64,000 nt of DNA from Candidatus Nealsonbacteria bacterium (GTDB taxonomy: Bacteria > Patescibacteriota > Minisyncoccia > Minisyncoccales > PWPS01), in assembly GCA_003551425.1 (NCBI GenBank), contig PUMP01000059.1:1369-65368 (forward strand), read 5' to 3'. Each line of letters opens with the position of its first letter. The first letter of the stretch is position 1. The position numbers and the translations under genes are program-made. This document shows, one piece after another, positions 14,620 to 40,854 of the stretch. The notes beneath the pieces were generated by a model. It was not told the origin of the DNA. It made no database searches and saw nothing but the letters and a program-made list of their open reading frames with translations.

Positions 14620-14678
14620 TGTGGAAAACTCTTTTTATTTGTTAAAATCTTAATAAGTTGTGGAAAATGTGGGGATAA
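14620..14678. promoter_or_regulatory. Cluster of three DnaA-box-like 9-mers (putative oriC core)
   Basis: TGTGGAAAA at 14620..14628 and 14659..14667, and TGTGGGGATAA at 14668..14678. Their reverse complements are TTTTCCACA x2 and TTATCCCCACA, against the consensus TTATCCACA. They lie between divergent dnaA and rpmH. Confidence 0.55.
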
Positions 14679-14746: not shown

Positions 14747-14881
14747 ATGTCATTTTTCAACAACCCTAAAAACAGAAAAAGGAAGAGAGCACACGGCTTT
14801 CTCAGTAGAATTAAGTCAAGGACCGGAAAAGCCGTTGTTAAAAGAAGAATAAGAAAGAGGAGAAACAGTATAACTGTTTAA
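14747..14881 (+). CDS. rpmH: 50S ribosomal protein L34 (44 aa, below the ORF-track cutoff)
   Basis: Hand translation gives MSFFNNPKNRKRKRAHGFLSRIKSRTGKAVVKRRIRKRRNSITV*. The 'KR.R.HGF..R..S..G..V...RR.K.R' pattern and the position before rnpA fit L34. Confidence 0.85.
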   Translation: MSFFNNPKNRKRKRAHGFLSRIKSRTGKAVVKRRIRKRRNSITV

Positions 14882-15941: not shown

Positions 15942-16380
15942 AGAAGAAATGAAAAAGATTATTTTTGAGTTCTTCCGTCTCATTGATCCCGATATAAGGG
16001 TGGATTTTCCTGCTTCTGAAGAGAATACGATTAATGTCTGTGTAAAAATAAAAGATCCCGAGTCTTTGATAGGAGAAAAAGGAAGAACCCTGGTTGAGAC
16101 GGAGAGATTATTCAAGATTATAGCAAGAAAGAAGAGCAAGGACCCTCTTTTTGTAAACCTTGATATTAACGATTATAAGAAGAGAAAAGGAGACCAATTA
16201 AAAGAGCTTGCAAACAGTACGGCAGACGAAGTCTCTCTTACCGGGATAGGAAAAAAATTTCCTCCCATGTCTGCTTACGAAAGGAGGATTATTCATATGG
16301 CGCTTGCGGAGAGAGAAGACGTGCTAACAGAGAGCGTAGATGAAGGTTCTCAGAGAAGAGTTGTTATCAAAAAGAGCTAG
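15925..16380 (+). CDS. jag: Jag-like KH/R3H RNA-binding protein
   Basis: KH-like 'LIGEKGRTL' and R3H 'MSAYERRIIHMALAE..DVLTES.DEGSQRRVVI', located after yidC. Confidence 0.8.
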   Translation: MKNMHKEEMKKIIFEFFRLIDPDIRVDFPASEENTINVCVKIKDPESLIGEKGRTLVETERLFKIIARKKSKDPLFVNLDINDYKKRKGDQLKELANSTADEVSLTGIGKKFPPMSAYERRIIHMALAEREDVLTESVDEGSQRRVVIKKS

Positions 16381-18194
16381 TCTTGCAGATCTTTTCCTTT
16401 CTCCTCTTTTATCCTTTCCAGTTCTTCCGGAGAAGATGTTATAATCTGGTCTTCCGTGTAAGATGCATTAATCTCGATAACCACCCTCTTTTGGCCGGCA
16501 AAAAAGATACCTTCTCCTATCTGTCCCTCTAAGAGAACAAATTTTTCTTCATCTGTGAGACTGAAAGTCTTTTGAACTTTGTCAATTACCGCGGATGACT
16601 GTTTAAGAAGTATTTTTAAAGCAGAGTTAGTGACGATCGGCTTACCGTATTCGGACTTCATAAAGTCGGCGACATCTTGGGTTATGGTCGTAACCCCTAG
16701 CCAGTATTTCCTTGACCTTTTGACAAGGCCAAAGAGGAAAGACGCTCCGTCTTCGGTTTGCATCATCCACCAAGCTTCATCTACCACAAGGATACGTTTT
16801 TTTGTTGCGGAAGTCACTGCTTTCCATATGTAACGCATGATAATGAACATTGCCATAGTTCTAAGCTCTTCCTCCAAATTTCTTATTCCAAAGACAGAAA
16901 GATTTCCTTCAAGCTTGACATTGGAGTATTGGTTGAAGAACTTTGCGTAAGTTCCTCTTGAAAACTTTCGAAGACGAAGAATAAGTGATCTTGTTCCTTC
17001 CATTGACTCTAAAACCTCTTCCAGGTCAGAAAAGAGAGGTACTTTTTCCTCCCAAGTATCGGGATCACTGTCTGCCGTTATGTCTTTTGCGGCGTAAGTT
17101 GCAATAATTGCTTGATCTATAATTGCGTCTTCTTCAGGAGTTAATCCCCCAAGCATAATCCTCAAGAGACCAACAAGATTAATCGTATTTGTCCTTAAAA
17201 CCTCCTCTGCCGTTTCTCCTTCCTTGGGAACGGGGATATCAAAGGGATTTATGTGATTATCTGATCCGAGAGAGATATCGTAGAAAGAGCCTCCGGCTGC
17301 TTCAGCCAATGTTTTATATTCATTTTCCGGATCAATAACAATTGCCTCTGTTCCCGTCATGAGCGACCTTAAAAGGGCTAACTTTACAAGATACGATTTT
17401 CCTGACCCCGCTGTGCCGAAGACTACTTCGTTGGGATTTTCAAGATCAAAACGGTCAAAAAGTACAAGAGAGTTGTTGTGCTTATTGATTCCGTATAAGA
17501 TGCCGTCATTAGAGCTGAGCTCGGAAGAGATAAAGGGGAATATACTGGAAAGAGGCTCCGTGTTCATGGGGCTGTGAGTCTGAAGAACATCTCTTCCGTA
17601 CGGAGAGGTGCTGATAAAGCCACTCTTTTGCTGGAAAAGCGCGGACTTGAGATAAACTACTTTAGATTCCAGAATTGATCTTAAGACAGTTTCCGTGTCT
17701 TCCAGGTCTTTTTCAGTCTCTCCATAGATGGTGATATAAAATCCAAACTGAAACATTCTTTCTTGCGCTGATTGAAGCCTGTTTCGCAAGTCTTCCAGGT
17801 CTTGGTGGGCTGTTTCTAGTGCAGGGTCACGAACCATGCCCTTATCTTCATTCTCCATTATCTCTGCCTGTACTTCGGTAAGCTTCTTTCTTAGTTTTTT
17901 AAGGACTTGTGTTGTATCTACGGCGTGGATGAAGAACGCTATATCCATCGGAGCATTTAAGTTAATAATTGAAATTAGCCAGCCGCTTGTTAAATAGTGA
18001 GGATAAGAGAAAACGAAGAAAGAGCGAGAAGTCTTTTCTCCTATCTTAAGCTCTCCCTGTTTTTCTTCTATAAAAGAAGGAGCGATAATATCTTTTATCT
18101 CAAAGAAATCATCCTCCTCTTCTTCAGTAGAAGATTTCTTTTGGGGAATGTCGAGCCCAAACATCTTTTTAAAGTTTTCTATAAAGTTTGACAT
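16377..18194 (-). CDS. VirB4/TrbE-family type IV secretion ATPase, C-terminal 605-aa portion
   Basis: Walker A 'VVFGTAGSGKSYLVK' and Walker B 'ILVVDEAWWMM' (the VirB4 DEAW signature). 'YPHYLTSGWLISIINLNAPMDIAFFIH' is typical of Gram-positive VirB4 (PrgJ/TcpF-like) middle regions. Confidence 0.8.
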   Translation of the reverse strand: MSNFIENFKKMFGLDIPQKKSSTEEEEDDFFEIKDIIAPSFIEEKQGELKIGEKTSRSFFVFSYPHYLTSGWLISIINLNAPMDIAFFIHAVDTTQVLKKLRKKLTEVQAEIMENEDKGMVRDPALETAHQDLEDLRNRLQSAQERMFQFGFYITIYGETEKDLEDTETVLRSILESKVVYLKSALFQQKSGFISTSPYGRDVLQTHSPMNTEPLSSIFPFISSELSSNDGILYGINKHNNSLVLFDRFDLENPNEVVFGTAGSGKSYLVKLALLRSLMTGTEAIVIDPENEYKTLAEAAGGSFYDISLGSDNHINPFDIPVPKEGETAEEVLRTNTINLVGLLRIMLGGLTPEEDAIIDQAIIATYAAKDITADSDPDTWEEKVPLFSDLEEVLESMEGTRSLILRLRKFSRGTYAKFFNQYSNVKLEGNLSVFGIRNLEEELRTMAMFIIMRYIWKAVTSATKKRILVVDEAWWMMQTEDGASFLFGLVKRSRKYWLGVTTITQDVADFMKSEYGKPIVTNSALKILLKQSSAVIDKVQKTFSLTDEEKFVLLEGQIGEGIFFAGQKRVVIEINASYTEDQIITSSPEELERIKEEKGKDLQD

Positions 18195-18195
18195 T

Positions 18196-18825
18196 TTACA
18201 TAATAAGTTCTTCCGGTATTTCCGGGAAGTACCCCTTTTCCGCTTGTTTTGGATGGTGCATGCTCCAAAGCAACTCTATGAGCTCGGAAGAAGTAAGCGG
18301 AACGGAGTGAAGGCTGCACCTGCGAAGCCCCAAAGCCACAAACTCCATTCTTTGGTATAACTGATCTCTTGATCTTTTAAAAACTTCTTCGGAAAGAGTT
18401 CCTTTGCGTGATGCTACAACGTCACGGGTTGAAGTCTTTGTTTCACCGACACTGTAAGGGACAACAACGAAGAAATTCTTGCTATAGACATCTTCTTTTC
18501 TTACAAACTCTTCCAAAAAGTCTATATATCCCGCTGTTTGGTGCCGTAAAAGATCATTAGTCTGTTCTTTCTTGAGCTCTTTAATTTTATCTATATATCC
18601 TCTGATATTGGTTCTCCTGGACTGAACCACAATTTGTAAATAAAAATCCAAAGAGTTTAAAAAGGCTTGGAAGTGATAGATGATTGCCTTTTGCTCTTCT
18701 TCGGACTTTAAGACGAAGTTTATCGATGAAATCATTAAGATTCCCCGTAACTGATTGTTTTTTAGAACAATCAACCCTTCTCTTATTTGCTTTATTTCAA
18801 GTAACTCTTGTGTGCTTAAAGGCAT
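18196..18825 (-). CDS. VirB4 N-terminal-region-like protein (separate 209-aa ORF)
   Basis: 'LEIKQIREGLIVLKNN.LRGILMISSINFVLKSEEEQKAIIYHFQAFLNSLDF.LQIVVQSRR' matches the start of Gram-positive VirB4 ATPases as I recall them. The stop is 1 nt from the next ATG, and the two ORFs are in different frames. Confidence 0.55.
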   Translation of the reverse strand: MPLSTQELLEIKQIREGLIVLKNNQLRGILMISSINFVLKSEEEQKAIIYHFQAFLNSLDFYLQIVVQSRRTNIRGYIDKIKELKKEQTNDLLRHQTAGYIDFLEEFVRKEDVYSKNFFVVVPYSVGETKTSTRDVVASRKGTLSEEVFKRSRDQLYQRMEFVALGLRRCSLHSVPLTSSELIELLWSMHHPKQAEKGYFPEIPEELIM

Positions 18826-18827
18826 AT

Positions 18828-19253
18828 TTAAAATGTTTCAATACGTGAGCTCACCTTGCCGAGCCTACTGCCTTTTTTTAATTTTTTCTCTTCCTCCCTT
18901 TCTTCTGTTTTTTTCTTCTTTGGGAGAGACCTCTTCTTTCTTTCTGTAGATATTTTAACCGGTTTTTCTTTTTTTTCCCATACATACTCTTTTGAAGCTG
19001 TAGAGAAAGCAATATAGTTTTTAATGTAGTTAGAAAGAGGCATTTCGTTAATTTTTAAAAAAGCCAAAGCGACTCCTCCTGTAGCCACAAAGGCGGAAAT
19101 GAAAAAGAAAAGGAGCAAACTTACTTCTCTTAATATAAGATAAAGGAAAAAGATAATAAAAGCCGCGATTCCAAGCGGGATAATTTGTTGGAAAGTAGCA
19201 GGGCCCACTATTTTTGCCTCATGCTCAATATTCCTTGGCACTTTATATCTCAT
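18828..19253 (-). CDS. PrgI-family (VirB3-like) small membrane protein
   Basis: 'MRYKVPRNIEHEAKIVGPATFQQIIPLGIAAFIIFFLYL' plus two TM helices, directly upstream of VirB4 as in Gram-positive T4SS loci. Confidence 0.6.
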   Translation of the reverse strand: MRYKVPRNIEHEAKIVGPATFQQIIPLGIAAFIIFFLYLILREVSLLLFFFISAFVATGGVALAFLKINEMPLSNYIKNYIAFSTASKEYVWEKKEKPVKISTERKKRSLPKKKKTEEREEEKKLKKGSRLGKVSSRIETF

Positions 19254-19302
19254 ATGATCATTTTAGCACAAAGGTAATCCAAGTAAAGAGGGAGGGTGAA
19301 GC

Positions 19303-19331
19303 TTGACAAATCTGCCATTTCATGATAGAAA
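19303..19331 (+). promoter_or_regulatory. Candidate promoter (TTGACA-17-TAGAAA) for the SPFH gene
   Basis: An exact -35 at 19303..19308. It argues that the listed ORF start (19322) is too far upstream. Confidence 0.45.
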
Positions 19332-19381
19332 AAAAGCGGAGTATGCACACTACAAAATTGTTATATAAGGAGGTTTTTAAA

Positions 19382-20623
19382 ATGATATGGTGGATTCTTT
19401 TTGTACTGTTGTTGGTAGGAATCTTTCTCCTCTCTTTCTATTCTCTCCGGTATTCTTTTGGAAAGGTGGAAGAAGGGACGACCAGGGTTATTATGAGCCT
19501 TGGGCAGTTTGATAACATCAAAATGGTCTGGAGGGGCCATTTTATGGATGAAGACTTTAACATTCTAAGAGAAGAAGAGGACGATGGAAGAAGAAGAAAA
19601 AAGATATCTGGTCGAATTTTTGGCGGATTCTTCTTTATGGGGCTTTATCCTTTTAAGAAGATCCATAGCTATTCTATTACGTGGAGTAGTAGCCATGGTC
19701 GAAAAGAAGGAAAAGCTGGGATAAGTGAAGAATTCAAGAAGATAAACCTCAAGCCCGAGGTTTATAGGTCGCTGGTAGAGAACGCTGAGACAAAAGAAAG
19801 GGTGCAATGCAAGGTTGAATACCTTGTGACTCTCAGAATTAATAATCCCTACAGATTTTTATTCGTTAGCCCTGATAACTCCCTAGAAGAAGCGTTGTCC
19901 CAAATAGATACACTGATACGTGACCTGGTTGGAAGTTATTCCTTTGAGAAGCTGTATACGCTTGAAAGACAGAAGATTTGGGAAAAAGTAAAAGACAGGA
20001 AGCTGTTACGAGTGTCCCAGCAAGATCCGGGGACGCTTCAAAAGTGGGGAATAGGAGTAGCGAAAGAGGGGATTACCTTTATAGAGGTCTCCCCCATGGA
20101 CAAGAGAATTACCGAAGCTCTTGCAGAGGAGCAAAAAGAAGACTTCGAGGCGAAAGGAGCCTCGAAAAGGATAGCAAAGAAAGTAGTATATATGATGGCA
20201 GAAGGTGCTGGCAAGACTCCTAAGCAAATCGCAAGAGATATAGAAAGCGATGCCGAGACGAGAAATAAGTTCTTTTCTTGGTGTCAAGAAATGGTAAGGA
20301 AAGATCTTGCCATGAGATCCGGTAGTTATATTAATGTTGACGTGGAAAGTGGAGGCGAGCTGGAGAAAACAATTCTTAATACAATTGCGGGCTTTCTGAG
20401 AATGCCACAGGGTCCGCAAGGAAAAGGAAATGAGCAAGGAGGCGTAGAAAAAGAAGAGAAGAAAAAGCCTAAGAATGATGTCGATGCAGACGAAGATGAA
20501 ATAGATGAAGAAGAGCAAGAAAACGAAGAAAGCAACAAAGAAGAAGAGGGCTCCGAGGTTTCATACAGCCCGGAACTTATGAAAAGAAATAGAGAGAGAA
20601 TACTAAAAGAACAGGGCCGTTAA
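19382..20623 (+). CDS. SPFH/band-7-like membrane protein with an acidic C-terminal tail
   Basis: Start chosen at the ATG preceded by AAGGAGG (MIWWILFVLLL = TM). 'FGKVEEGTTRVIMSLGQF' and 'VEYLVTLRINNPYRFLF...LSQIDTLIRDLVGSYSFEKL' resemble SPFH domains. The C-terminus is D/E/K-rich. Confidence 0.5.
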   Translation: MIWWILFVLLLVGIFLLSFYSLRYSFGKVEEGTTRVIMSLGQFDNIKMVWRGHFMDEDFNILREEEDDGRRRKKISGRIFGGFFFMGLYPFKKIHSYSITWSSSHGRKEGKAGISEEFKKINLKPEVYRSLVENAETKERVQCKVEYLVTLRINNPYRFLFVSPDNSLEEALSQIDTLIRDLVGSYSFEKLYTLERQKIWEKVKDRKLLRVSQQDPGTLQKWGIGVAKEGITFIEVSPMDKRITEALAEEQKEDFEAKGASKRIAKKVVYMMAEGAGKTPKQIARDIESDAETRNKFFSWCQEMVRKDLAMRSGSYINVDVESGGELEKTILNTIAGFLRMPQGPQGKGNEQGGVEKEEKKKPKNDVDADEDEIDEEEQENEESNKEEEGSEVSYSPELMKRNRERILKEQGR

Positions 20624-20648
20624 CCCCTTATAACAATTCAACTTTAAA

Positions 20649-20675
20649 GGCCGACAATCACTGTCGGTCTTCTTC
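20649..20675. terminator. Hairpin (GGCCGACA-atcac-TGTCGGTC) between convergent genes
   Basis: A 7/8-bp stem followed by TTCTTC. It is the only structured element in the 67-nt convergent spacer. Confidence 0.4.
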
Positions 20676-20690
20676 ATGGACAAGAAAGAG

Positions 20691-21101
20691 TTAAGTTATG
20701 GGCTCTCTGTAAGGATCGCTACTCCTTTTCTCTGTTGCTTTCTTCCTCTTAGGGAGAGACTTTTTCTTTTCTTTAACATGAGGAGAGGAGATGTGCGGCA
20801 ATACTTTTGAGCTTAACGTTCTTTTAATTTTTCGCGCTCTTTCTTCACTTACTTCTAACTTCTTAACAAAATAAGAAACCATATCTTCTTTCTTTAACTT
20901 TCCATGAGCGTAATCGGATACGGCTTTAGAAATAATTCCTCCGGGAGAAGAAGCCATTATTTTCTTTCTTTCTTCTTTCTCTTCGCACTTAACCCATTTT
21001 TGAAAAGACTTGTCTTGCTTAGACTTTAATTTCTTGCTTTTTTCAACAATCTCTTTAATTATTTCTGCGACGTTTTGAGGATAAGTTATTTTTTCACTCA
21101 T
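20691..21101 (-). CDS. Hypothetical Lys-rich cytoplasmic protein (136 aa), last gene of the pilin/M23 operon
   Basis: ORF with a 10-nt spacer to the upstream gene. I recognise no motif. Confidence 0.5.
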   Translation of the reverse strand: MSEKITYPQNVAEIIKEIVEKSKKLKSKQDKSFQKWVKCEEKEERKKIMASSPGGIISKAVSDYAHGKLKKEDMVSYFVKKLEVSEERARKIKRTLSSKVLPHISSPHVKEKKKSLPKRKKATEKRSSDPYREPIT

Positions 21102-21111
21102 ATGAAATTAA

Positions 21112-23331
21112 TTAATCATCTCTTAGTTCTTCAGCTTCTATATATGCAGGATGAGCTGTGATAATGTTAAAGTTATGTCTTCTTTGCCTGCGTGCCTCTT
21201 CGGGGAAGTCATTAAATGTTTCTATAAGATTCCTTAATCCCTTATAATTATATTCTGCTACTGCTTGGATGCTGCGAGAATTCTGAGTAAGAGCGTCAGC
21301 AACGGCTTCGTTTCTGTAAGCGGAAGGAATCATGTTTCTTTGTTCTCCGGGGCTCATATTTAGCACCAGATTAACATCATCTCTGTATCGATCGTCTAAT
21401 CGCCTTTCCAGTTCTGTTTGAATTATTCTGTTTCTTTCCTCTTCAGATTGCCCTTGCCTCTTCGGGGTTTCTCGCGCAACATCTTCCCAGGTAGGTTGTT
21501 CTTCTGCGTGCGGGGCTATTTTTTTGTATTGACTTATTTGATTATTTACATTTCTTAGTGCGTTTGCTTGGCTTCTTTGCCTTCTATTCATCTCTCTTTG
21601 AATTCTATCATTGTAATCGGCATTTGATTCTCCTGTATTTTGTGGAAAATCTCCTTGTACCGCTCCCCTGGTGATGTTTTCTTGAGATGCTTCAACTTCC
21701 CTTCTTTTCCTTTGTAATTTCTCTATTTCGTCTCCAATAGCTAATCTAGCTGCATTCTCTTGATATTTATCACCGGTATCAGCAATTTTTTTCAAATCAC
21801 CAGCCTTTCCCCCGGCCCTTCTTATTTGATCCGGTCTTTGGAACTCTGACGGGGTTTTCTTTGCCTCTTCTTCGGCTTCACTTTTTCTTCTTTTTGCCCA
21901 CCTGGCAAGAGATGGTGCTGCTAATTTTGCTATCGGCATCTTTCTCATTCGTTCCGCCATGTTTTCTACACCTTCCGGCACATTGGCTCTTTCTTGTGAT
22001 CCCTTAGGAACAAAGCTATGCTTGAAAGCTCGTCCTGCAGTTCCGCTAATTGAAGCACCAAATGTTTTGGCCTGGCTTATTGCGGCATCTACTCCTGCCG
22101 GTATAAACTTCTTTCCGAAAAAGAGAATTGTAATGAAGTAAATTAAAAGAATGACGTAATAAACAATCCCGCTATCCAGGAAGATTCGTGATATGCCAAC
22201 AACCCACCCTGTCTCTCCTAGCTCTGCTTCTCTAATAGAGCCTTCAAGAACATCCACCATTCCTACCATATTAAATCCCAAGATAAGCAGAAAGGCGAAA
22301 ACGATACCAGCAAAGAGCCACTGCAAAAGGCTTCTTAGCCATAACTCAAAATAGCCGTAGATCTTTGTGCCGGGAAAAATCAAACAGATGAAGGCAAGAG
22401 GAGCAATAACCGCAAGTATTTGTATGATAAAGATTCTTACAACGAAAATCACAAAGAAGAGAAAGAAAGCGCCGGCAAGAAGCATGTTTATCAGTCCCTG
22501 AACAAACATTGATAATATCTCACCAAACCAGATGAATCCGGCTGCTATAACCGCAAATTGCACCGCTACGGATAAATAAGGGATTAGCATTGCTAAGGAA
22601 AATACCCCTAGAGCAACCGCAAATCCAATTATTTGTTCTGTTGTACCGGTAAAAAGCGTGTCCATTGATGCAGTAACAAGGTTTGTTGCTTCTTGGGGAC
22701 CGTCTCTTTCACAGCAACACGGTTCTTCTCCTTCGCAGAATTGGGGATCTCCAGGGACTGTCCCTGACGGGCACACGCCTTCTCCCGGATAAAATTCTAT
22801 ATGTGTACAATCGGGCTCTATTACAAGTTGCTCTGAAATAGTGCTAAAGAAAACATTTGAGACATCAATTCCCATTCCTACAAAAACCAAAGAGAAGTTT
22901 ATAAGCAAGGCGACGCCGATTAGCCTGGGGAATGCTTTCTTAAGCCCAAGATTGTCAAACTTTAATATGATAGAGATAGCGATAATAACAAACGCTATGA
23001 TAAGCAGCATATTAGAGATACCGAGAACAAACTCCCATCCTACCTCTATAATTCGATGATCCAAGGTAAGCACCTCCGGTGTGGCTGTAATAATTGACAC
23101 CAAGTATTCGGTAGCCATCTTTAAGAGCCCGAAAGAGAGAATTAAAAACAAGAACAAAAATATTGCCAGAGCCAGAATTGGTCCCACTGCTTCAGATAGC
23201 CCTTCAAGCTGTTTGTGCCCAAGGTCAAAGACAAAGCCATCCGTTATTTTTGGCAATAAAAGAAATAATAGAAAAATAAAGGCAGAAGAGAGCAGCTTTA
23301 GCTTTGACTTATATTTTTCCTTTAAAAACAT
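21112..23331 (-). CDS. Large polytopic membrane protein, possibly a VirB6/TrbL/PrgH-class T4SS component
   Basis: 739 aa. Signal/TM N-terminus, roughly 8-10 hydrophobic helices, a 7-Cys loop 'CTHIEFYPGEGVCPSGTVPGDPQFCEGEEPCCCE', and a ~320-aa R/Q/E-rich cytoplasmic tail. The assignment rests on topology and context only. Confidence 0.45.
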   Translation of the reverse strand: MFLKEKYKSKLKLLSSAFIFLLFLLLPKITDGFVFDLGHKQLEGLSEAVGPILALAIFLFLFLILSFGLLKMATEYLVSIITATPEVLTLDHRIIEVGWEFVLGISNMLLIIAFVIIAISIILKFDNLGLKKAFPRLIGVALLINFSLVFVGMGIDVSNVFFSTISEQLVIEPDCTHIEFYPGEGVCPSGTVPGDPQFCEGEEPCCCERDGPQEATNLVTASMDTLFTGTTEQIIGFAVALGVFSLAMLIPYLSVAVQFAVIAAGFIWFGEILSMFVQGLINMLLAGAFFLFFVIFVVRIFIIQILAVIAPLAFICLIFPGTKIYGYFELWLRSLLQWLFAGIVFAFLLILGFNMVGMVDVLEGSIREAELGETGWVVGISRIFLDSGIVYYVILLIYFITILFFGKKFIPAGVDAAISQAKTFGASISGTAGRAFKHSFVPKGSQERANVPEGVENMAERMRKMPIAKLAAPSLARWAKRRKSEAEEEAKKTPSEFQRPDQIRRAGGKAGDLKKIADTGDKYQENAARLAIGDEIEKLQRKRREVEASQENITRGAVQGDFPQNTGESNADYNDRIQREMNRRQRSQANALRNVNNQISQYKKIAPHAEEQPTWEDVARETPKRQGQSEEERNRIIQTELERRLDDRYRDDVNLVLNMSPGEQRNMIPSAYRNEAVADALTQNSRSIQAVAEYNYKGLRNLIETFNDFPEEARRQRRHNFNIITAHPAYIEAEELRDD

Positions 23332-23353
23332 TTATCTTTAATTATTCTTTATT

Positions 23354-24805
23354 TTATTCCCACCAACCTTCTTCGCATGAATATAGTCCCCACAAACCTT
23401 CCCAGCAGACATTAATTGTTACATCTTCGGTCATTTCAATGTTAGGGATATATCCATCGTTAATAGCGGGATCTCCTTCTTTTGACCATTCGAAAGTTGT
23501 TCCCCACCATTCGGAGCCAACCTCATGAAGTGCTACAATATTACGGTGTTCCGGAATCTCTGTGCGGCATCTATTTCTAGCTTCCACGAACCCGCAATCA
23601 ATGTACCCATGATGAGGGGGGCGGTGCTTTGTCTCTATTCTCATAATGTCAAGCTCGATACCCCAGTCATCTTCATCTGCTTCTCCAATATGGCCCCGAT
23701 AAGGGTTAATGGTCAGAGTAAATGTCTCTATGCCGTCGGGAAGATCCAGTGGTCCGGAGTAGCACCGATTAGGAGAGCTGTCTCTGCAATAGGTGCGAGA
23801 AATCTCTACGGCACCTTCCTCCGGGTCTGTTGTTCCTATTGCCTCTCTTTCTTGTCTTCTTTCAATCTCCATGCAATCTATTGATCTTCCAAATCCGAAA
23901 ATTCCTTCCTCCAGATCAACCGTAGGTATTGAGCCGCGGCTTAATTTTTCACCACAAGCGACTTCTGGAGCTCCAATCTCCCACCAGTTTGCTGTTGCTT
24001 CATAAAGATCGGCTATGGAAGTTCCTCCTTCTTTATATAAGCCCCTGGGGTCCGGTCTCATTTTCTCACCGGGACCAAACCTTTCCGCCTGATGGCTGCC
24101 AATTCCTATTATATCTCCTCCTTGCCCCATTGTTTGTTCTATTTCTACCGGAGGACTATATCTCTGATACCCAAGAGATATGCCGTCTTCTAGTTGTTTC
24201 ATTTCATCCGGCGGTATTGCCGTATATCCCTTTACCGATTTTGGAGAATGATCTTCGTGTATTTCATCGGCTTCTAGTTGTATGTTGTATATATCCTTGT
24301 TTCTTATATAAACCGTGGCAATGTGATCTTCATGGTTTTTCTTGGCGTAAAACTCCATAATATCAACGGGTTCTCCTTCAAGGTCTGCGAGACTTAGATC
24401 GGAAATATAGACTTCGTCATGAATGCTAAAAGTTACGGGAGAGATTCTTACCAGTTCGGGGTTTATCATGCTTAATATTACCCAAGAAGATAAAAGCAAT
24501 ACTAGCCCTATTACTGCGGACTGGATTCTTGACAAAGCATCTTGCATCACGGCGGGCTTTCCGGCAGAGATTGTGTATTGAAATCCGGAGAATACCAGGA
24601 TGCCAAATACCAGCAATATGCCGATAATAATTCCCCACTCGTAAAAGTATGCGATAAGTTCGTGAAGTGGCATATCGCGCCGGAACTCTATGGTGGGAGA
24701 GTCTGGCCAAGCAACTTCCGTATTGGCAATAGCCACGGAGAAAGACGCAAAAAATAAAAAGAGAGAAGAAAAAAGCGTTTTTAAATTAAGTATTTCTTTT
24801 TTCAT
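23354..24805 (-). CDS. Secreted chimeric protein: N-terminal pilin-like two-helix module + ~360-aa Cys/Trp-rich C-terminal domain
   Basis: Signal peptide, then 'LHELIAYFYEWGIIIGILLVFGILVFSGFQYTISAGKPAVMQDALSRIQSAVIGLVLLLSSWVILSMINPELV', which resembles the T4SS/CPR pilin-like fold. It ends in 'EEGWWE'. Confidence 0.55.
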   Translation of the reverse strand: MKKEILNLKTLFSSLFLFFASFSVAIANTEVAWPDSPTIEFRRDMPLHELIAYFYEWGIIIGILLVFGILVFSGFQYTISAGKPAVMQDALSRIQSAVIGLVLLLSSWVILSMINPELVRISPVTFSIHDEVYISDLSLADLEGEPVDIMEFYAKKNHEDHIATVYIRNKDIYNIQLEADEIHEDHSPKSVKGYTAIPPDEMKQLEDGISLGYQRYSPPVEIEQTMGQGGDIIGIGSHQAERFGPGEKMRPDPRGLYKEGGTSIADLYEATANWWEIGAPEVACGEKLSRGSIPTVDLEEGIFGFGRSIDCMEIERRQEREAIGTTDPEEGAVEISRTYCRDSSPNRCYSGPLDLPDGIETFTLTINPYRGHIGEADEDDWGIELDIMRIETKHRPPHHGYIDCGFVEARNRCRTEIPEHRNIVALHEVGSEWWGTTFEWSKEGDPAINDGYIPNIEMTEDVTINVCWEGLWGLYSCEEGWWE

Positions 24806-25497
24806 GCTTCGTTTTCTGTTTTAATCTCTATGGAATCCATTATATGGTTTACTTGTTCAGAAAAATCTTCCCAAAGACTGGAGATTATGAAAACGGAAAC
24901 CATGTATCTTTCGTTATCAATATGTATTATTTGTTCTTTTGCTCGAACCTCTCCTATCGGGCTTTTATACTTTGTTTTAAATATTTTTCCATGTTTTGTT
25001 TCTTCTTCTTCCAAAATCTCACGGGAAGTATCTTTCACAAAAATATCTTCCGTTTTTTTCAATAAATCACCTTCTTCCGCACCATCTTCTCTTAAAACAG
25101 TCATTCCCGCCTTTGCCTCAAAAGGCCCTACAAGAAAAGAGGTAAAAAGGATTTCAATGTTCTCCTGATCCAAGTCTTCTATATCTTCTACAGATTCCCA
25201 GTGCGAAGGGTATGCTACTCTTATTTTGTCATTTGGCCCTGTAAATTCTTCATATTCTATCTCTTCGGCGCTTTTTAGTTCTTCGTTATTTAGGCTTCGA
25301 TATTCATCCAGATAATCTCCGCTAATAATGTCTTCCATGGAAGGAAGAGAATATTCCGAAGTGGCTATTTCTCTTTCCGGAAACCTGGGGTGAGTAACGC
25401 CCTCTTTATTCCCGGTTTGCTGGCTGTGAAAATAGGTAGAAAGAACCAGGAAAGCTATCATCAAGAAGCTTATTATAACTATTTTTTTATCCGACAT
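24802..25497 (-). CDS. Bitopic membrane-anchored acidic protein (231 aa)
   Basis: A single N-terminal TM (IVIISFLMIAFLVLSTYF) followed by a ~200-aa soluble domain. Size and topology are compatible with a VirB8/PrgL-class component, but no motif supports this. Confidence 0.5.
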   Translation of the reverse strand: MSDKKIVIISFLMIAFLVLSTYFHSQQTGNKEGVTHPRFPEREIATSEYSLPSMEDIISGDYLDEYRSLNNEELKSAEEIEYEEFTGPNDKIRVAYPSHWESVEDIEDLDQENIEILFTSFLVGPFEAKAGMTVLREDGAEEGDLLKKTEDIFVKDTSREILEEEETKHGKIFKTKYKSPIGEVRAKEQIIHIDNERYMVSVFIISSLWEDFSEQVNHIMDSIEIKTENEA

Positions 25498-25505
25498 TTT
25501 TATGA

Positions 25506-28500
25506 TTATAATTCAATTTGCCACCAAAATCCATATATGCTTGTATCATATCCTATCATAGGCATTCCCATTGTTAAAATAAGCCATCCGAAGAAAAGGA
25601 TGACAAATCCGATTCCTACCGCTCTCCAAACAGCCTTTACTCTTGCCAAGACCTCTGTTCCCAAGGAAGGAGAAAGGTAAAATATTGCCCCTGTTGCCAG
25701 TATCATTAATCCAATAGCGACGGGAAAGAGGTTCCAAAGAACAAAATCGATTAATACTTTAAATAATATCAATAAATGCTTGGGCTGGCAAGATTCTCTT
25801 TCATTCCAGTCGGTATCCGGGCTGTTATATGTCCTGCCACAAGGAACAAGGCCGACGCCGTCAACCTCTACTTCGTAGTAATTGAAAGACCACCAGGGAG
25901 AAAAGTCTCCGCTTTCTTCGCACTCGCTGTCAAGGCAAGATTTTACTCTCCACTCATAATCTCCCAGGTCAAATAACCTTAAAAAGAAATTATTATCGGA
26001 GATAATCTCTTTTTCTTTCTCTCCGTCGGGAAAAATAACTTCGTATTTATAATAATTTGCTCCCCTAATAGCGTTCCAAGAAACATCGATATTTCTTTCT
26101 TCGGTAAAAATCTCGGCGTTATCTTGAGGGCTGGGGACAGAAGGAGCGTAAAGAGTAAAGGTGGTGAACTCTACCGGAGGAGTAAAGAATCCTCCGCAAT
26201 AATCGGTGCCCGGATCGGCACAAGTTTCCACTGTCCAAGAATAAGATTCTTCTGTTTTAATTTTCGGATAGTCAAGACGGATCCTTGTCGTTGAAGTATG
26301 ACTTCTTTTTATCTTATCTCCTTCTTTGTTAAATAACTCGAATACATAGGATTTTGCCCCCGAAACAGCTCCCCACTCTGCGTTAAGGGGAATTAAAACT
26401 TCTTGGGCTTTGTTATAAGGAGTTGCGGTTTTATTTAAGTCGGGAGGACGTCCGGTAGTGGTAAATTTATGCCAATCCGTCCAAGTGTCGTTACAATCGT
26501 CTCCGTTTTCGTCGTAGCAAGACCTGAGCCGCCACCTGTAATCTGTGTTAAGAGCAAAGTCATCTATGTCTATCCTGGTATTGGTATCTTGAAGGTGTCT
26601 TTCTATTGTTCCTCCTTCTCCGTCCATTCTTTCCAGCTGAAAATAATAGGAGTGAGCACCAAATGGCTTGTTCCACTCAAAATAAGCGCTGGGATGAATG
26701 GCGATAGGATTTCTCCCCTCTGGATCGTTAAGAGGAGAGAGTCCGGAGGGGTTCTCAAGACCCCCGGAAACAATAAACTTCCATATTTGACCATAATCGG
26801 TGCAGTCTTTTCTGGAGTGGTCTTTACAAGCGGCGATTTGCCATCCGTATATCTCTCCTTTTTCATCGAATAGTCCGACATTTTTATTAATTAATTTTGT
26901 AGGAGGGTCTCCTCTATGGATAGGAACAAGACTAGGATCGTGAATGGGGACAGGTTCGCAAAGACCTCCCAAGCGAACACGGTCGGGATGACACTCCAGT
27001 TCACCGCCTATTTCTTTATAGGCATAAAGCAAATAAGCCTTATAATCTTCCTCTCTTTCATGGTCACACCAAGTTGGGTTTGCGTCTTTAAAGTCTATAG
27101 GGTTATGATGAGTCCCCGCCATACTTTCCGGATCTACCCATCCGGAATCATAAGGGGAAAGCGGTTCGGGAGCCTCGTTGGTTTGAAATCCCGGCCAACT
27201 GCTCCACTTTCCGCAGTCTGTACCATCAGTGCTACAACAAGCCTGTACTTTCCAGTTATGGGTGTCGCCGGGCCTAAGAAGGCAGCGGTCTGCATTGAAG
27301 TTATTACGGGAAACCGTGGTTTCAAGAGCTTTCCCCGAAGAGCTTGAGGTTAGCTTATAGGAAGAGCCTGCTATCTTTTCACTATTATCTTTGTTTAAGG
27401 CAGCTAAATCTATCCTTGAATCGGAAGGAGATTTCTCTAGAAGAAGATCGTTTTCGTAAGGATCTTCCATTTCGCCGTTATAGAGATCTTCTGGAGGAGT
27501 CTCTTTATCTGATACATATTTTGGCACATAGCCTGGAACATAATAAGTTGCTCTCCCCATGTTGCTATGATTCCTAATATAATTAATAGTTTCTGCAAAG
27601 ACTAGCTGATTACGATCAAGATATTTAAGAGGATCGTCATGTCCACGATCAACACCACCGCTCCAGCAAGAACCCAAACAAACATCAAGATGCAAATGAA
27701 CTCCAGTAGAGGCTCCGGTAGTTCCCATTCTTCCGATTTGTTGTCCTTGCTCTACTTTATCGCCTGGACTAACGAACATACTATGGAGATGAAGATACTG
27801 CGTATATAGATTATCTCCACTGCCCGTTATATCACCGTGATTGATTCTTACAGTATTTCCCGCGCCTCTTCCAGGGGTACCGATATATCTTGCTATAGTT
27901 ACTTTACCTTCTGCTGCTGCATATATAGGTGGATTAGTAAATCCTGATTGAACAAAGTCAGTCCCAAGATGAAAATGGCCAACATCCATGTCCCAGCCAC
28001 TGCGATCTTGGGCAAAATTAGAAGTAACTCTTATATTTTTTAATTCTAATGGCCAAGCAAGAAGTCCTTCTTCCGGAGCAGGAGGAGGGTCGCCAATAGG
28101 CTGAGAGGGGTCGTCGGGATCGGGATGAAGAAAATCTCTGGTGGTATTGTCTATCTTTATGTTATAAGAGCTTGGTCCCGTATCTTCATTCCATCCTGAG
28201 ACATTGTCCCAAGCAAGAGCTACGGGAAGATATATGTCATCATTTCCTTCATAAGGATAATCGGACTGAAGAATTGTTGTTGCTGGATTGGCGTAATACT
28301 CTTCGTTTTGCGGAGCATCTAAACACTCACCGGCACAGGAGCAATCATTTTTTGTAGCATCACACTTTTCCCAAGAGTTGCAATTTTCTTTAGTTACCCA
28401 ACGAGTATTACCGCATCCATCTTCTTGCTGTCTCTGCAATGTTCCTCCGCAGCTACCAACACAGCGCGTGTTATTGGTATTACTCCAGCTGGGCTCACAC

Positions 28501-28604
28501 TCTTCGGCATTAGCCAAGTTTATCCCCAAAGCAAGGAAGGCGGTTATTATTAAAAAAAGAGAAAATAATAAGAGAGTTTTTATGTTGGCTGGCTTAAATG
28601 ACAT
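25506..28604 (-). CDS. 1032-aa secreted multidomain protein: Cys-rich N-terminus, M23 peptidase, five Cys/Trp beta-modules, C-terminal 'LVPCG' pilin-like membrane module
   Basis: Signal peptide. M23 motifs 'HLGTDF', 'GNTVRINHG' and 'YLHLHSMFVSPGDKVEQGQQIGRMGTTGASTGVHLHLDV'. Repeats of the form 'W[KR]V..C....C....W..F.T'. The C-terminus has 'GLVPCG....C..HLLILFKVLIDFVLWNLFPVAIGLMILATGAIFYLS'. Confidence 0.75.
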   Translation of the reverse strand: MSFKPANIKTLLLFSLFLIITAFLALGINLANAEECEPSWSNTNNTRCVGSCGGTLQRQQEDGCGNTRWVTKENCNSWEKCDATKNDCSCAGECLDAPQNEEYYANPATTILQSDYPYEGNDDIYLPVALAWDNVSGWNEDTGPSSYNIKIDNTTRDFLHPDPDDPSQPIGDPPPAPEEGLLAWPLELKNIRVTSNFAQDRSGWDMDVGHFHLGTDFVQSGFTNPPIYAAAEGKVTIARYIGTPGRGAGNTVRINHGDITGSGDNLYTQYLHLHSMFVSPGDKVEQGQQIGRMGTTGASTGVHLHLDVCLGSCWSGGVDRGHDDPLKYLDRNQLVFAETINYIRNHSNMGRATYYVPGYVPKYVSDKETPPEDLYNGEMEDPYENDLLLEKSPSDSRIDLAALNKDNSEKIAGSSYKLTSSSSGKALETTVSRNNFNADRCLLRPGDTHNWKVQACCSTDGTDCGKWSSWPGFQTNEAPEPLSPYDSGWVDPESMAGTHHNPIDFKDANPTWCDHEREEDYKAYLLYAYKEIGGELECHPDRVRLGGLCEPVPIHDPSLVPIHRGDPPTKLINKNVGLFDEKGEIYGWQIAACKDHSRKDCTDYGQIWKFIVSGGLENPSGLSPLNDPEGRNPIAIHPSAYFEWNKPFGAHSYYFQLERMDGEGGTIERHLQDTNTRIDIDDFALNTDYRWRLRSCYDENGDDCNDTWTDWHKFTTTGRPPDLNKTATPYNKAQEVLIPLNAEWGAVSGAKSYVFELFNKEGDKIKRSHTSTTRIRLDYPKIKTEESYSWTVETCADPGTDYCGGFFTPPVEFTTFTLYAPSVPSPQDNAEIFTEERNIDVSWNAIRGANYYKYEVIFPDGEKEKEIISDNNFFLRLFDLGDYEWRVKSCLDSECEESGDFSPWWSFNYYEVEVDGVGLVPCGRTYNSPDTDWNERESCQPKHLLILFKVLIDFVLWNLFPVAIGLMILATGAIFYLSPSLGTEVLARVKAVWRAVGIGFVILFFGWLILTMGMPMIGYDTSIYGFWWQIEL
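25880..27350 (-). repeat. Five tandem protein-level modules (~90-110 aa each) inside the 1032-aa ORF
   Basis: The signature recurs five times: HNWKVQACCSTDGTDCGKWSSWPGFQT, YGWQIAACKDHSRKDCTDYGQIWKFIVS, YRWRLRSCYDENGDDCNDTWTDWHKFTT, YSWTVETCADPGTDYCGGFFTPPVEFTT, YEWRVKSCLDSECEESGDFSPWWSFNY. Confidence 0.6.
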
Positions 28605-29445
28605 TTTTTAGAACTTTGACAAGCAGCTTCCATTCTTTTATGCTTAATTTTTCCGCCCTGCTTTTAGGGTCAACACCACTTTCTTTGATCAAAGAATAAA
28701 GCTCTTCTTTTTTTATTAAGTTTAGCCCCTTTTTGCCTTTAATGTCAAACTGGAAGTTAGTTAAGATTTGTTTTCGGGGATGAGAGAATCCCTTTTTAAC
28801 TATTCGGAAAAAATCTTTTTTGAATTCTTCGTCAAAGATTTCTTCTTTTGGCGTGATTTTTATAATTGACGACTCTACGGAAGGGGACGGCCAAAAAGAG
28901 TTTCTGGAAACATGGGAAACGATCTCGGGCCTGGCATAGAACTGTACGGAAACGGACAAAACGCTCATATTGGGAGGCTTGGCAATTATTCTTTCCGCGA
29001 CTTCTCTTTGAACGGTAAGTACAAGAGAGCTAGGCGGACATCTTTCTTCTAAAAACTTTCTTATTACGGGAGAAGTAATGTAATAGGGAAGATTTGCTAC
29101 AACCTTGTAGTCTCTGAAAGGGACGGGAAAACTTAAAATATCTTCGTGAATTATCTTTATGTTTTCTTTGTTTTTTATGAGATCACGGAGTACCGACACC
29201 AGTCTCCTGTCTTTTTCTACCGCTGTAACGCGCTTTGCTTTTTTTGCCAAGGGGAGAGTAAGAGTTCCGATGCCGGGACCGACCTCAACAACTTCATCTT
29301 TCTTTGAAAGATCGGCGCTGTCGCATATTTTCTTTACGACACTTTTGTCTATGACAAAGTTTTGTCCCAGTGATTTTTTCGGATTTACAAAATAAGAATC
29401 AAGAACTTTTTTTAGGTTTTCTTTGTTTGTTAGGTCTATTTCCAT
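28594..29445 (-). CDS. rsmA: 16S rRNA (adenine1518/1519-N6)-dimethyltransferase
   Basis: 'LGQNFV.D', the SAM motif 'VVEVGPGIGTLT' and 'VANLPYYITSP'. The stop overlaps the start of the 1032-aa ORF by 11 nt. Confidence 0.9.
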   Translation of the reverse strand: MEIDLTNKENLKKVLDSYFVNPKKSLGQNFVIDKSVVKKICDSADLSKKDEVVEVGPGIGTLTLPLAKKAKRVTAVEKDRRLVSVLRDLIKNKENIKIIHEDILSFPVPFRDYKVVANLPYYITSPVIRKFLEERCPPSSLVLTVQREVAERIIAKPPNMSVLSVSVQFYARPEIVSHVSRNSFWPSPSVESSIIKITPKEEIFDEEFKKDFFRIVKKGFSHPRKQILTNFQFDIKGKKGLNLIKKEELYSLIKESGVDPKSRAEKLSIKEWKLLVKVLKNVI

Positions 29446-29522: not shown

Positions 29523-30524
29523 TTGAAGAGGAGGGCTTCGGGTCAAAGTGGCTTTACGATTCCAAAAAGGAGAAATAAAATTTTCCTTGTTTTTGTTTTA
29601 TCTTTATTTATAGCTGCTTGCCTTACAAATACGGAAGATTTCTTTGGCAAAGAAGAACCCAAAGAGGAAAGCTTTGTATCGGACTTTGATTTTTTTCTTT
29701 CCTCCGAAAGAGAAGATAGCTCCGAATCAATTATATTTACCGACAAGAACACCCTTCTCTCCGGGTCGGCTCCTTACTTTGTGAGCTCGAGGGTGATGGG
29801 GGGCGCCGGAGTAAGCCAAAGAAACAATATTATTTCTTATAAGGTGGAGGAGGGGGATACTCTTTCAAGTGTTGCCGATAAGTTTGATATTAGCAAAGAC
29901 ACGATACGGTGGGCTAATGACATAAACGGCCAAGTAAAACCCGGAGAAGAGTTGGTTATTCTTCCCGTAACGGGAGTTATGTATTATGTAGAGTCCGGAG
30001 ATACTTTATCGGAGGTTGCCGAAATGCATAAAGCGGAAAGAGAAGAGATAAAGGAGTTCAATAATCTATATGTAGAGGACATTTATCCCGGTGACTTGAT
30101 AATTATTCCGGGAGGGGAGCGTCCCGCTATTCCTGAACCTGCGCCTCCGGCACCTTCTACGCAGTTCGTTGCTCCCGCAATAGGGATTGTTACTCAAGGG
30201 CCACACCACTATAATGCGATAGACATTGCTAATAATTGTGGTAGCCCTATCTATGCGGTACAATCGGGGGTAGTAGTGGAAAGAGCCTATAACACTTGGC
30301 CGGCAGGTCACTTCTTAAAAATTGATCATGGAAATGTGGTGGCAATGTATGCCCACATGCAAAATATGTATGTTGGAGTAGGCGACAGAGTCCATCAAGG
30401 ACAGCAAGTTGGAACGATGGGGACTACAGGACTTTCAACCGGTTGTCATATTCACTTTGATATTCTTTCAAGAAGAATAAGGAATCCTTTTGCTCACATT
30501 CCGGTTGGAGGACAGGTAAGATAA
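29523..30524 (+). CDS. LysM(x2)-M23 peptidoglycan endopeptidase (TTG start)
   Basis: N-terminal TM/lipobox-like 'FIAAC'. Two LysM units ('YKVEEGDTLSSVADKF', 'YYVESGDTLSEVAEMH'). M23 motifs 'IDIA...GSPIYAV', 'YAHM' and 'GTTGLSTGCHIHFD'. Confidence 0.85.
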   Translation: MKRRASGQSGFTIPKRRNKIFLVFVLSLFIAACLTNTEDFFGKEEPKEESFVSDFDFFLSSEREDSSESIIFTDKNTLLSGSAPYFVSSRVMGGAGVSQRNNIISYKVEEGDTLSSVADKFDISKDTIRWANDINGQVKPGEELVILPVTGVMYYVESGDTLSEVAEMHKAEREEIKEFNNLYVEDIYPGDLIIIPGGERPAIPEPAPPAPSTQFVAPAIGIVTQGPHHYNAIDIANNCGSPIYAVQSGVVVERAYNTWPAGHFLKIDHGNVVAMYAHMQNMYVGVGDRVHQGQQVGTMGTTGLSTGCHIHFDILSRRIRNPFAHIPVGGQVR

Positions 30525-40224: not shown

Positions 40225-40251
40225 ATTTTTAAGATTAATTTATCTCTCTAG

Positions 40252-40324
<73 letters not shown>

Positions 40325-40341: not shown

Positions 40342-40854
40342 TTAATCTTCTTCTATCGTACAATCTATTTTATAAATCCCCTCATCCCACCAGTCTTCAA
40401 ACCCCCAGCTGTCTTCTTCCGTCATTCCCATACCTTCAAGAATAAGCCCTACTGTGACCCATGCGGTGTAAGCGATAAGAACGCCGGCGATAGCTACAAG
40501 GATAACAGTTCTTCCTTTTTTATATCCCTCGGGATTGGCAGAGTTCGTATAAAGCGTGATTCCACCGAAGATTATAAGGATAATGGCGGCTGCGGGAATC
40601 ATTCTTGTCATAAAGAAATCGACTACATTGCCGAAAATTACAAACAAGTGGCATAACTGACAGTCCGGCAAATGATCTTCGGGTCCGCAAGGAACAAGCC
40701 CGACACTGACATCATAACATGTACTGTCATGCCAATGATATCCTGCCTCTTCACACTCTTCTTTGGTGTTAAGGCCCTCAACCTCGTAATTTGCCAAGGC
40801 AAGAAGGGGAAGAGCCATGAAAAGAAGAACAACTATCAATATCCTTTTTAGCAT
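40342..40854 (-). CDS. Secreted 'LVPCG'-type pilin-like protein (170 aa)
   Basis: Signal peptide, a Cys-rich head, then 'GLVPCG......C.LCHLFVIFGNVVDFFMTRMIPAAAIILIIFGGITLYTNSANPEGYKKGRTVILVAIAGVLIAYTAW'. This is the same module as the C-terminus of the 1032-aa protein. The tail is Trp-rich, 'WGFEDWWDEG'. Confidence 0.6.
   Translation of the reverse strand: MLKRILIVVLLFMALPLLALANYEVEGLNTKEECEEAGYHWHDSTCYDVSVGLVPCGPEDHLPDCQLCHLFVIFGNVVDFFMTRMIPAAAIILIIFGGITLYTNSANPEGYKKGRTVILVAIAGVLIAYTAWVTVGLILEGMGMTEEDSWGFEDWWDEGIYKIDCTIEED

Follow-up and report, generated by a model that had tools for sequence, protein, structure and literature searches.

A chromosomal type IV secretion-like locus with ectodomain-bearing pilin hairpins near dnaA in a Candidatus Nealsonbacteria genome

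Introduction

An unusual Gram-positive-like type IV secretion system (T4SS), encoded by SEML1_0006-0019, was reported in Candidatus Southlakia epibionticum by Wang et al. (2023; PMC10633639). The T4SS and pilin genes of that species were found by transposon sequencing in co-culture to be essential for epibiotic growth, and neither a relaxase nor a type IV coupling protein (T4CP) was recognised in the cluster (PMC10633639). The present study concerns a T4SS-like gene cluster in a Candidatus Nealsonbacteria bacterium (assembly GCA_003551425.1). The cluster is situated in a 64,000 nt stretch of contig PUMP01000059.1 (positions 1,369-65,368, forward strand), referred to below as the window. An earlier reading of this DNA, referred to as the original prediction, interpreted the cluster as a T4SS-like machine of the cell envelope that is chromosomal, does not serve conjugation and contains chimeric parts specific to the lineage, a description that fits every test made here.

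In a survey of 3,035 genomes, VirB4 was found in 2,417, and the Patescibacteria VirB4 clade was nested in MPF_FATA (Quinonero-Coronel et al. 2025; PMC12102498). TrsD was the most frequent partner of virB4 in that survey, and PrgI/VirB3, VirB6, PF18895 pilins and M23/LysM hydrolases were encoded nearby; in the Paceibacteria and Microgenomatia, virB4 was located near dnaA, dnaN, rnpA, ksgA and rpmH (PMC12102498). Relaxases were rare in the Patescibacteria, and VirD4-like T4CP genes were present in most genomes, remote from virB4 (PMC12102498). Extracellular proteins with T4SS-pilin domains have been observed among the most highly expressed genes of unknown function in Paceibacteria that parasitise archaea (Kuroda et al. 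2024; PMC10936435). A 2024 perspective described the role of the Patescibacteria T4SS as 'completely unknown', and a 2025 review regarded the Patescibacteria systems as newcomers to the T4SS superfamily.

The class as a whole, including the absence of a relaxase and the near-origin site, was thus described between 2023 and 2025, and the locus reported here is a typical member of it. It belongs to a Nealsonbacteria-like member of the Parcubacteria/Paceibacteria and descends from monoderm MPF_FATA conjugation machinery. The best explanation of the data, to which a probability of roughly 0.75 is assigned, is that the locus encodes an origin-proximal, vertically inherited chromosomal Patescibacteria T4SS that functions as a pilin-display contact apparatus and not in conjugation.

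Results

The PrgI-TrsD-VirB4 unit

All of the open reading frame (ORF) coordinates of the original prediction were reproduced by the ORF map, and Pfam and NCBIfam profile scans of 16377..28604 confirmed its VirB4, PrgI, M23 and T4SS_pilin domain calls. The core of the locus is a minus-strand unit of three genes (16377..19253), in which both the VirB4 and the PrgI match exceeded the curated cut-offs.

The VirB4 ATPase (605 aa, 16377..18194) corresponds to the C-terminal three quarters of a canonical VirB4. It matched NF045971, the 'VirB4-like conjugal transfer ATPase, CD1110 family', with 351.9 bits against a cut-off of 325, the match spanning positions 185-733 of the 752 in the profile; Pfam P-loop_TraG (1.4e-24) and AAA_10 were matched as well. 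The closest solved chain was the C-terminal domain of the Thermoanaerobacter VirB4 (4ag5, 4.2e-40), followed by R388 TrwK (9e-7). The GSGKS and DEAW motifs that had been predicted are present in the translation, as Walker A (GSGKS) and Walker B (VVDEAW). By its sequence, then, this VirB4 is assigned to the MPF_FATA lineage.

One nucleotide upstream of virB4, on the same strand, a TrsD-like protein of 209 aa is encoded (18196..18825). It matched the TrsD model NF041427 (6.7e-10), as well as positions 5-99 of the CD1110 model and 104-233 of the VirB4_plasma model. On these profile matches, the gene is a separately encoded VirB4 N-terminal domain, which would supply the part missing from the VirB4 ORF. 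The possibility that the split is a frameshift or sequencing artefact was considered and rejected: in each of the 77 sequences compared (76 related loci and the window), TrsD and VirB4 are encoded by distinct ORFs, never by a fused one, with gaps of mostly 1, 4 or -4 nt between them. Because of this constancy, the split is regarded as ancestral. The third gene of the unit (18828..19253, minus strand) encodes a PrgI/VirB3-class protein of 141 aa with two transmembrane helices and a basic tail, which matched PF12666 (6.7e-11, 43 bits against a cut-off of 27). The composition predicted for this unit was therefore borne out by the NF045971, NF041427 and PF12666 matches.

Conservation of the locus in related genomes

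To obtain related loci, the VirB4 protein was scanned against one genome per species (185,579 species). The scan yielded 542 relatives, the best 80 of which were analysed; presence counts below are from tblastn of the window proteins against these 80 loci. All of the 80, with 56-86% VirB4 identity, are labelled as Patescibacteria metagenome-assembled genomes, except for two with odd labels. Candidatus Nealsonbacteria came first, at 86% and approximately 70-74%, followed by Staskawiczbacteria, 'Paceibacterota' and Minisyncoccales, down to 56%. The two exceptions are L026 and L043, whose labels read 'Pseudomonadota bacterium' and 'Pacearchaeota archaeon'. Binning or labelling errors are probably the cause, and not transfer, since L043 retains the Patescibacteria synteny; L026 is too short for a judgement beyond PrgI-TrsD-VirB4.

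It is apparent that the arrangement recurs in related genomes, with the PrgI-TrsD-VirB4 unit convergent to jag-yidC-rnpA. TrsD was detected in 76 of the 80 loci and an adjacent PrgI in 70; among the neighbours, Jag was detected in 60, YidC in 59, RnpA in 56, DnaA in 51 and RsmA in 27. In each of the 60 loci with a jag gene, this gene is convergent to virB4; it is directly adjacent in 23. The dnaA gene was situated 1.8-9.2 kb from the 3' end of virB4. Given this recurrent synteny, the cluster is considered to be vertically inherited and chromosomal, not an integrative conjugative element (ICE). Counts for the proteins of the second unit, described below, ranged from 48 of the 80 loci (483-aa pilin protein) and 43 (739-aa protein) to only two each for the 231-aa and 136-aa proteins. 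When the window was compared with its closest relative (L001), the ATPase and the housekeeping proteins were 77-86% identical, and exposed proteins or parts of proteins 47-55%.

The chromosomal setting and the search for mobility genes

The jag gene is the immediate neighbour of the cluster on one side; on the other is rsmA, which overlaps it. Housekeeping genes extend over 16 kb on its left and 35 kb on its right. The housekeeping set of the window includes IF2, RuvABC, TyrRS, PBP1, DnaN, DnaA, RnpA, YidC, Jag, RsmA, PNPase, NusA, ClpP, RNase Y, Fpg, HolA, a Mur ligase, RtcB, GreA, L19, L20 and a PilB-type ATPase; the remaining ORFs of at least 100 aa are unassigned. The G+C content of the locus, 0.38-0.44, is similar to that of the rest of the window.

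A screen for mobility genes was carried out on the window ORFs of at least 100 aa. No relaxase, T4CP, VirB11 or integrase family was matched by any of them, in agreement with the original prediction, and neither an integrase/recombinase family nor the excision module and boundaries of an ICE were found in the window. Relaxase, T4CP and integrase were likewise absent from the 25 most frequent families in 68 additional large ORFs of the related loci. The lack of a coupling protein is a statement about the 64-kb window.

The original prediction had also placed the cluster beside the replication origin. Its dnaA, dnaN, rpmH, rnpA, yidC and jag neighbours were found as expected; the origin itself is inferred. 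Three DnaA-box-like 9-mers, with one mismatch each, are located at 14620-14678, in the intergenic region between dnaA and rpmH (14747-14881) and 1.7 kb from the 3' end of virB4; the window-wide count of such 9-mers was not above chance. From these boxes, the dnaN-dnaA pair and the rpmH-rnpA-yidC-jag order, it is plausible that the dnaA-rpmH region represents a putative oriC context. GC skew gave no origin position, showing instead a strong minimum at 32-40 kb, because two glutamate- and lysine-rich genes dominate there. Promoter and terminator scans of the locus yielded results at chance level.

Pilin-domain proteins and the M23 chimera

A second, co-oriented minus-strand unit begins with the housekeeping gene rsmA/ksgA (28594..29445; RrnaAD 1.5e-60), which overlaps the next gene by 11 nt. 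Five genes follow, and the spacers given for them by the original prediction (8, -4, 22 and 10 nt) were reproduced. Its description of two of the products, as an M23-peptidase/pilin-like chimera of 1032 aa and a pilin-like fusion of 483 aa, also held.

The 483-aa protein (23354..24805) consists of a signal peptide, a VirB2-like two-helix hairpin (aa 29-123) and a 360-aa, acidic, Cys-containing ectodomain. PF18895 (T4SS_pilin) was matched at aa 50-113 (1.5e-6, 28.6 bits against a cut-off of 26.6), and a clade pilin hidden Markov model (HMM) matched aa 29-123 with 8.7e-31. The ectodomain is nearly an orphan: a full HMMER scan of 1.84 billion representative proteins returned three clusters.

The 1032-aa protein (25506..28604, minus strand) has in its N-terminal part a signal/transmembrane segment, a Cys-rich region and an M23 peptidase domain (aa 211-308), followed in its C-terminal part by about four 100-aa modules with Cys pairs and a VirB2-like pilin hairpin (aa 924-1022). 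Peptidase_M23 was matched with 3.4e-21 and M23 chains in the PDB down to 5.7e-13. The HxxxD (HLGTD) and HxH (HLH) motifs are intact, from which the peptidase is predicted to be catalytically competent. Pfam gave no pilin match at the C-terminus of this protein; the hairpin was recognised there by a pilin HMM built from the related loci (1.2e-13) and by BLASTP against the 483-aa pilin domain (4e-4). Neither the middle of the 1032-aa protein nor the 483-aa ectodomain had a usable match in direct Pfam and NCBIfam scans. Nine Cys residues were observed within 60 aa near the N-terminus of the chimera (aa 36-94), and Cys pairs recur regularly about every 100 aa.

A third pilin-domain protein is encoded 11.7 kb from the cluster, between tRNA-Lys (40251-40324) and tRNA-Arg (40917-40991). 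This stand-alone VirB2-like pilin of 170 aa (40342..40854, minus strand) has a signal peptide and an LVPCG motif, matched the clade pilin HMM with 1.5e-15, and is a candidate for the major pilin.

Pilin HMMs were seeded separately from the 483-aa hairpin and the 1032-aa C-terminus, and both arrived at an identical set of 132 ORFs, of which 129 belong to 59 related loci and three to the window. The hairpin is N-terminal, with a large C-terminal extension, in 110 of the 132 (total length 273-1477 aa, with a median of 495 aa), C-terminal in eight and stand-alone in nine. M23 is fused to the hairpin in five related loci as well as in the window, in both domain orders. When 81 of the pilin-domain proteins were scanned, 56 matched PF18895, three TrbC/VirB2 and five M23, with one match each to a C39-like peptidase and an Ig domain; the other ectodomains among these 81 matched no family.

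The gene order of C-terminal-pilin protein, PsbP-like protein, N-terminal-pilin protein(s) and VirB6-like protein recurs in the Nealsonbacteria subgroup. Among L020-L080, 37 of 60 related genomes carry gene insertions of 0.5-8 kb between virB4 and jag (for example L033:11760-17405 and L063:11825-18150). The insertions are mostly arrays of one to three pilin-hairpin proteins with large ectodomains, reaching 1477 aa, and it follows that pilin genes move between the sides of virB4 within the clade.

The VirB6-like, PsbP-like and basic proteins

The three remaining products of the second unit had been labelled polytopic (739 aa), bitopic (231 aa) and basic (136 aa); approximately nine hydrophobic helices, a single transmembrane helix and an isoelectric point of 10, respectively, agree with these labels.

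The 739-aa protein (21112..23331, minus strand) begins with a signal/transmembrane segment, continues with about eight further transmembrane helices and ends in a 300-aa charged, helical cytoplasmic tail, a layout of the 'extended VirB6' type. No usable match to the protein came from direct Pfam and NCBIfam scans, and a profile of the family produced only chance-level matches against PDB sequences. Two of 19 homologues matched TrbL/VirB6 (PF04610, best 2.6e-5). An AlphaFold2 model, with a mean predicted local distance difference test (pLDDT) score of 71.9, had Legionella DotA and R388 TrwI/VirB6 as its top three PDB matches, at weak E values (0.045-0.11) with probabilities of 0.98-1.0. Together, the homologue and fold matches provide indirect grounds on which the protein is accepted as probably VirB6-class. 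A Cys-rich extracytoplasmic segment with a CCC run in a loop was noted at aa 175-210; this segment and those of the M23-pilin chimera suggest disulfide-stabilised surface modules.

The 231-aa protein (24802..25497, minus strand) has one N-terminal transmembrane helix, and there is a 4-nt overlap between its stop codon and the start of the 483-aa gene. As the bitopic protein of the locus it would be the obvious choice for VirB8, a class that the original prediction lists in the conserved core of Gram-positive T4SSs. A VirB8 assignment was not upheld. A profile of 11 family members matched the cyanobacterial PsbP (2xb3) with 1.2e-5 over aa 79-219, the whole ectodomain, and the AlphaFold2 model matched PsbP (8.7e-7), MTC28, EagT6/SciW, DcrB and LpqN, with no VirB8, TcpC or NTF2 fold among the top 50 structure matches. 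Confidence in the model was modest (pLDDT 58 overall, 70-87 in the domain). Sequence profile and predicted fold agree, however, in indicating a PsbP/Mog1-like ectodomain of the DcrB/LpqN/Eag type, and the VirB8 reading is rejected on the basis of both. A word-indexed homologue search found only two or three relatives for the 231-aa and 483-aa proteins. The last gene of the unit (20691..21101, minus strand) encodes the soluble 136-aa protein, for which no family was matched in Pfam and NCBIfam scans.

The SPFH gene and the second hydrolase

Between the two minus-strand units, as had been predicted, lies a gene for an SPFH/Band-7 membrane protein of 433 aa (19322..20623, plus strand; Band_7 2.4e-7), divergent from prgI. 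In 59 loci there was enough upstream sequence for the SPFH neighbourhood to be judged. ORFs with an SPFH domain were found in 36 related loci and in the window, and in 32 of those 36 the gene is divergent from prgI and within approximately 1.2 kb of it. It is thus a persistent neighbour, possibly acting as a membrane scaffold or other part of the system.

Beyond rsmA, which was found upstream of the cluster in 27 of the 80 loci, a second cell-wall hydrolase with two LysM domains and an M23 domain is encoded (29523..30524, plus strand; Peptidase_M23 1.4e-23, LysM 2.1e-17). This protein is a candidate substitute for VirB1. It is kept beside rsmA in 27 of the 80 loci. Next to it in the window, just past rsmA, is a DksA/TraR-type zinc-finger protein (30527-30886, minus strand), which was seen in 17 of the 80. 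The window therefore holds three VirB2-like pilin-domain proteins and two M23 hydrolases.

Comparison with described T4SSs

No essential difference was found between this locus and the Patescibacteria T4SSs surveyed previously (PMC12102498). Shared features are an MPF_FATA-related VirB4, adjacent TrsD and PrgI/VirB3, a VirB6-like protein, PF18895 pilins, M23/LysM proteins in place of VirB1, the lack of a relaxase and the dnaA, dnaN, rnpA, rpmH and ksgA neighbours. The text of that survey mentions neither fusions of pilins to ectodomains, nor an SPFH neighbour, nor a PsbP-like bitopic protein. The system of Candidatus Southlakia epibionticum ML1 is likewise chromosomal and Gram-positive-like, has pilin genes and lacks a recognisable relaxase or T4CP in its cluster, and its low locus tags suggest an origin-proximal position. 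ML1, however, belongs to the Saccharimonadia and has an array of six pilins, in comparison with two large pilin fusions and one remote stand-alone pilin in the window; essentiality has been shown for ML1 only.

The conjugative MPF_FATA systems of the Firmicutes, for which CTn2 (CD1110 VirB4), pGO1 (TrsD, TrsC) and pCF10 (PrgI, PrgH, PrgK, PrgL) were compared, share with the locus a CD1110-type VirB4, TrsD-like and PrgI-like partners, a VirB6-class protein and a wall hydrolase. Unlike them, the locus has no relaxase, T4CP, oriT context or VirB8-like protein (PrgL/TraM/TcpC) in the window; its hydrolase is of the M23 rather than the SLT/CHAP type, and it has VirB2-like pilins, which the Gram-positive systems lack. 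With the diderm T4SSs (R388, F, VirB/D4) it has in common the VirB2-like hairpin, the VirB3-VirB4-VirB6 inner-membrane platform and a VirB6 model resembling TrwI. In contrast to those systems, the outer-membrane core (VirB7/9/10), VirB5 and VirB11 are absent from the window locus, and its pilin domains carry fused ectodomains that are hundreds of residues long.

Other features of the window

The genes responsible for the extreme GC and AT skew at 32-38 kb encode giant proteins of 959 aa (32208-35087, minus strand) and 752 aa (35100-37358, minus strand), consisting of 21-29% Glu and 20-21% Lys. Neither has a Pfam match, and the 959-aa protein contains two copies of an ERWxIEEKRRDIEKEKW-like motif. 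Preceding this pair is a gene for an acidic, single-transmembrane protein of 437 aa (30889-32202, minus strand), found in two of the 80 related loci. A PilB-type T2SSE ATPase (4712-6013, plus strand; 3.1e-122) stands alone between tsaE and ruvB, and a lamin-tail-domain protein (7016-7699, plus strand) is encoded between ruvB and yebC. Three further ORFs stand out as unusual in a bacterium with a small genome: a bacterial Elp3-like radical-SAM/GNAT protein (58665-60260, minus strand), a presenilin/signal-peptide-peptidase-like membrane protease (57942-58745, plus strand) and a weak proteasome-subunit-like ORF (43099-44034, plus strand).

Discussion

In R388 and F-type systems, the inner-membrane platform that drives pilin extraction and polymerisation is made up of VirB4 together with VirB3 and VirB6. 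By analogy, TrsD, VirB4, PrgI and the VirB6-like protein would assemble a platform at the cytoplasmic membrane, and VirB4 would pull the two-helix pilin hairpins out of the membrane, as in pilus-forming T4SSs. The hairpins would then build a surface fibre or contact structure whose termini bear large, fast-evolving ectodomains, including an active M23 peptidase. These ectodomains are expected to face outward because of the topology of the proteins, a signal peptide followed by two transmembrane helices. The M23 domains may cut peptidoglycan, in the cell's own wall or in that of a host; the former is favoured because the reported hosts of Nealsonbacteria are methanogens. The SPFH and PsbP-like bitopic proteins would probably serve as accessory scaffold and chaperone, respectively, and the apparatus as a whole would function in attachment to, and exchange with, a host cell rather than in conjugation. 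VirB4, TrsD, PrgI, the VirB6-like protein and the SPFH protein are the conserved parts of the locus; fast evolution is seen in the PsbP-like and 136-aa proteins and in the ectodomains anchored by pilin domains.

Several considerations weigh against this contact-apparatus explanation. The evidence for a VirB6-class protein is indirect (two of 19 homologues, fold E values of 0.05-0.1), and no VirB8-like protein was found. A T4CP or a relaxase could be encoded elsewhere, as nearly all of the genome lies outside the contig. Hairpins carrying ectodomains of 360-900 aa may be simple membrane anchors that do not polymerise, and the M23 domain may act only on the bacterium's own wall, the known hosts of Nealsonbacteria being methanogenic archaea without murein (PMC10936435).

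Other explanations were weighed against the same data. Homology of VirB4, TrsD and PrgI to components of the Gram-positive conjugative elements CTn2, pGO1 and pCF10 might point to an ordinary ICE, or a remnant of one, with its relaxase, coupling protein and integrase outside the region examined. The cluster, however, abuts jag and is overlapped by rsmA, no mobility family was matched in the 16 kb to the left or the 35 kb to the right, its position is kept in 51-60 of 80 genomes at VirB4 identities down to 56%, and its G+C content matches that of its surroundings. The ICE explanation is rejected on these grounds and can be credited with hardly any probability. A machine for the import of DNA or nucleotides, resembling H. 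pylori ComB or the archaeal Ced system and feeding an organism unable to make nucleotides, would require neither a relaxase nor a T4CP; such a role has been proposed for Saccharibacteria (PMC11665869), and a weak match of VirB4 to CedB (NF041017, 1.2e-18) is consistent with it. That match amounts to 67 bits against a cut-off of 700, CedD gave 31 bits against a cut-off of 600, and the best family is the conjugative CD1110, so that the ATPase does not qualify as a CedB/ComB4 type. ComEC, ComB and Ced partners were found neither in the cluster nor in the rest of the window, and the large, variable ectodomains and the peptidase on the pilin hairpins would be left unexplained. Import is accordingly judged improbable.

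A contact-dependent translocator of effector proteins into a host, in which the pilin-domain proteins only build the conduit, would accord with the protein export or alternative role favoured by Wang et al. (PMC10633639) and later reviews, and T4SSs that deliver effectors without a T4CP are known, among them Ptl and Brucella VirB (PMC12102498). Within the locus, neither a candidate effector nor a secretion signal was identified, and the sole unassigned small protein, of 136 aa, occurs in two of the 80 loci. As a complete account of the locus this appears rather unlikely; it is nevertheless compatible with a contact apparatus, and neither import nor effector delivery is mutually exclusive with such an apparatus.

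A more specific version of the contact-apparatus explanation can be offered only tentatively. The VirB2-like hairpin may, in this Paceibacteria clade, have turned into a portable handle, by means of which the VirB4/VirB6 platform would draw large, hypervariable ectodomains, among them active M23 and occasionally C39-like peptidases, out of the membrane for display on a fibre or contact structure. The PsbP/Eag-like bitopic protein would take over from VirB8 as chaperone of the hydrophobic hairpins, with the site organised by an SPFH cage. If this were true, the T4SS would be an organ of surface display and wall breaching rather than a translocator.

The window adds no new class of T4SS, and is best regarded as a clean example from the Paceibacteria. 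What it does add is small: the large, nearly orphan ectodomains on most pilin domains of this clade, the fusions of M23 to pilin hairpins in both orders, the conserved SPFH gene and the PsbP-like protein. The Patescibacteria T4SS is essential in the sole species tested, and anatomical clues of this kind are therefore of some value. The recurrent fusion of pilin hairpins to large ectodomains and peptidases provides a concrete hypothesis that can be tested in cultivable relatives.

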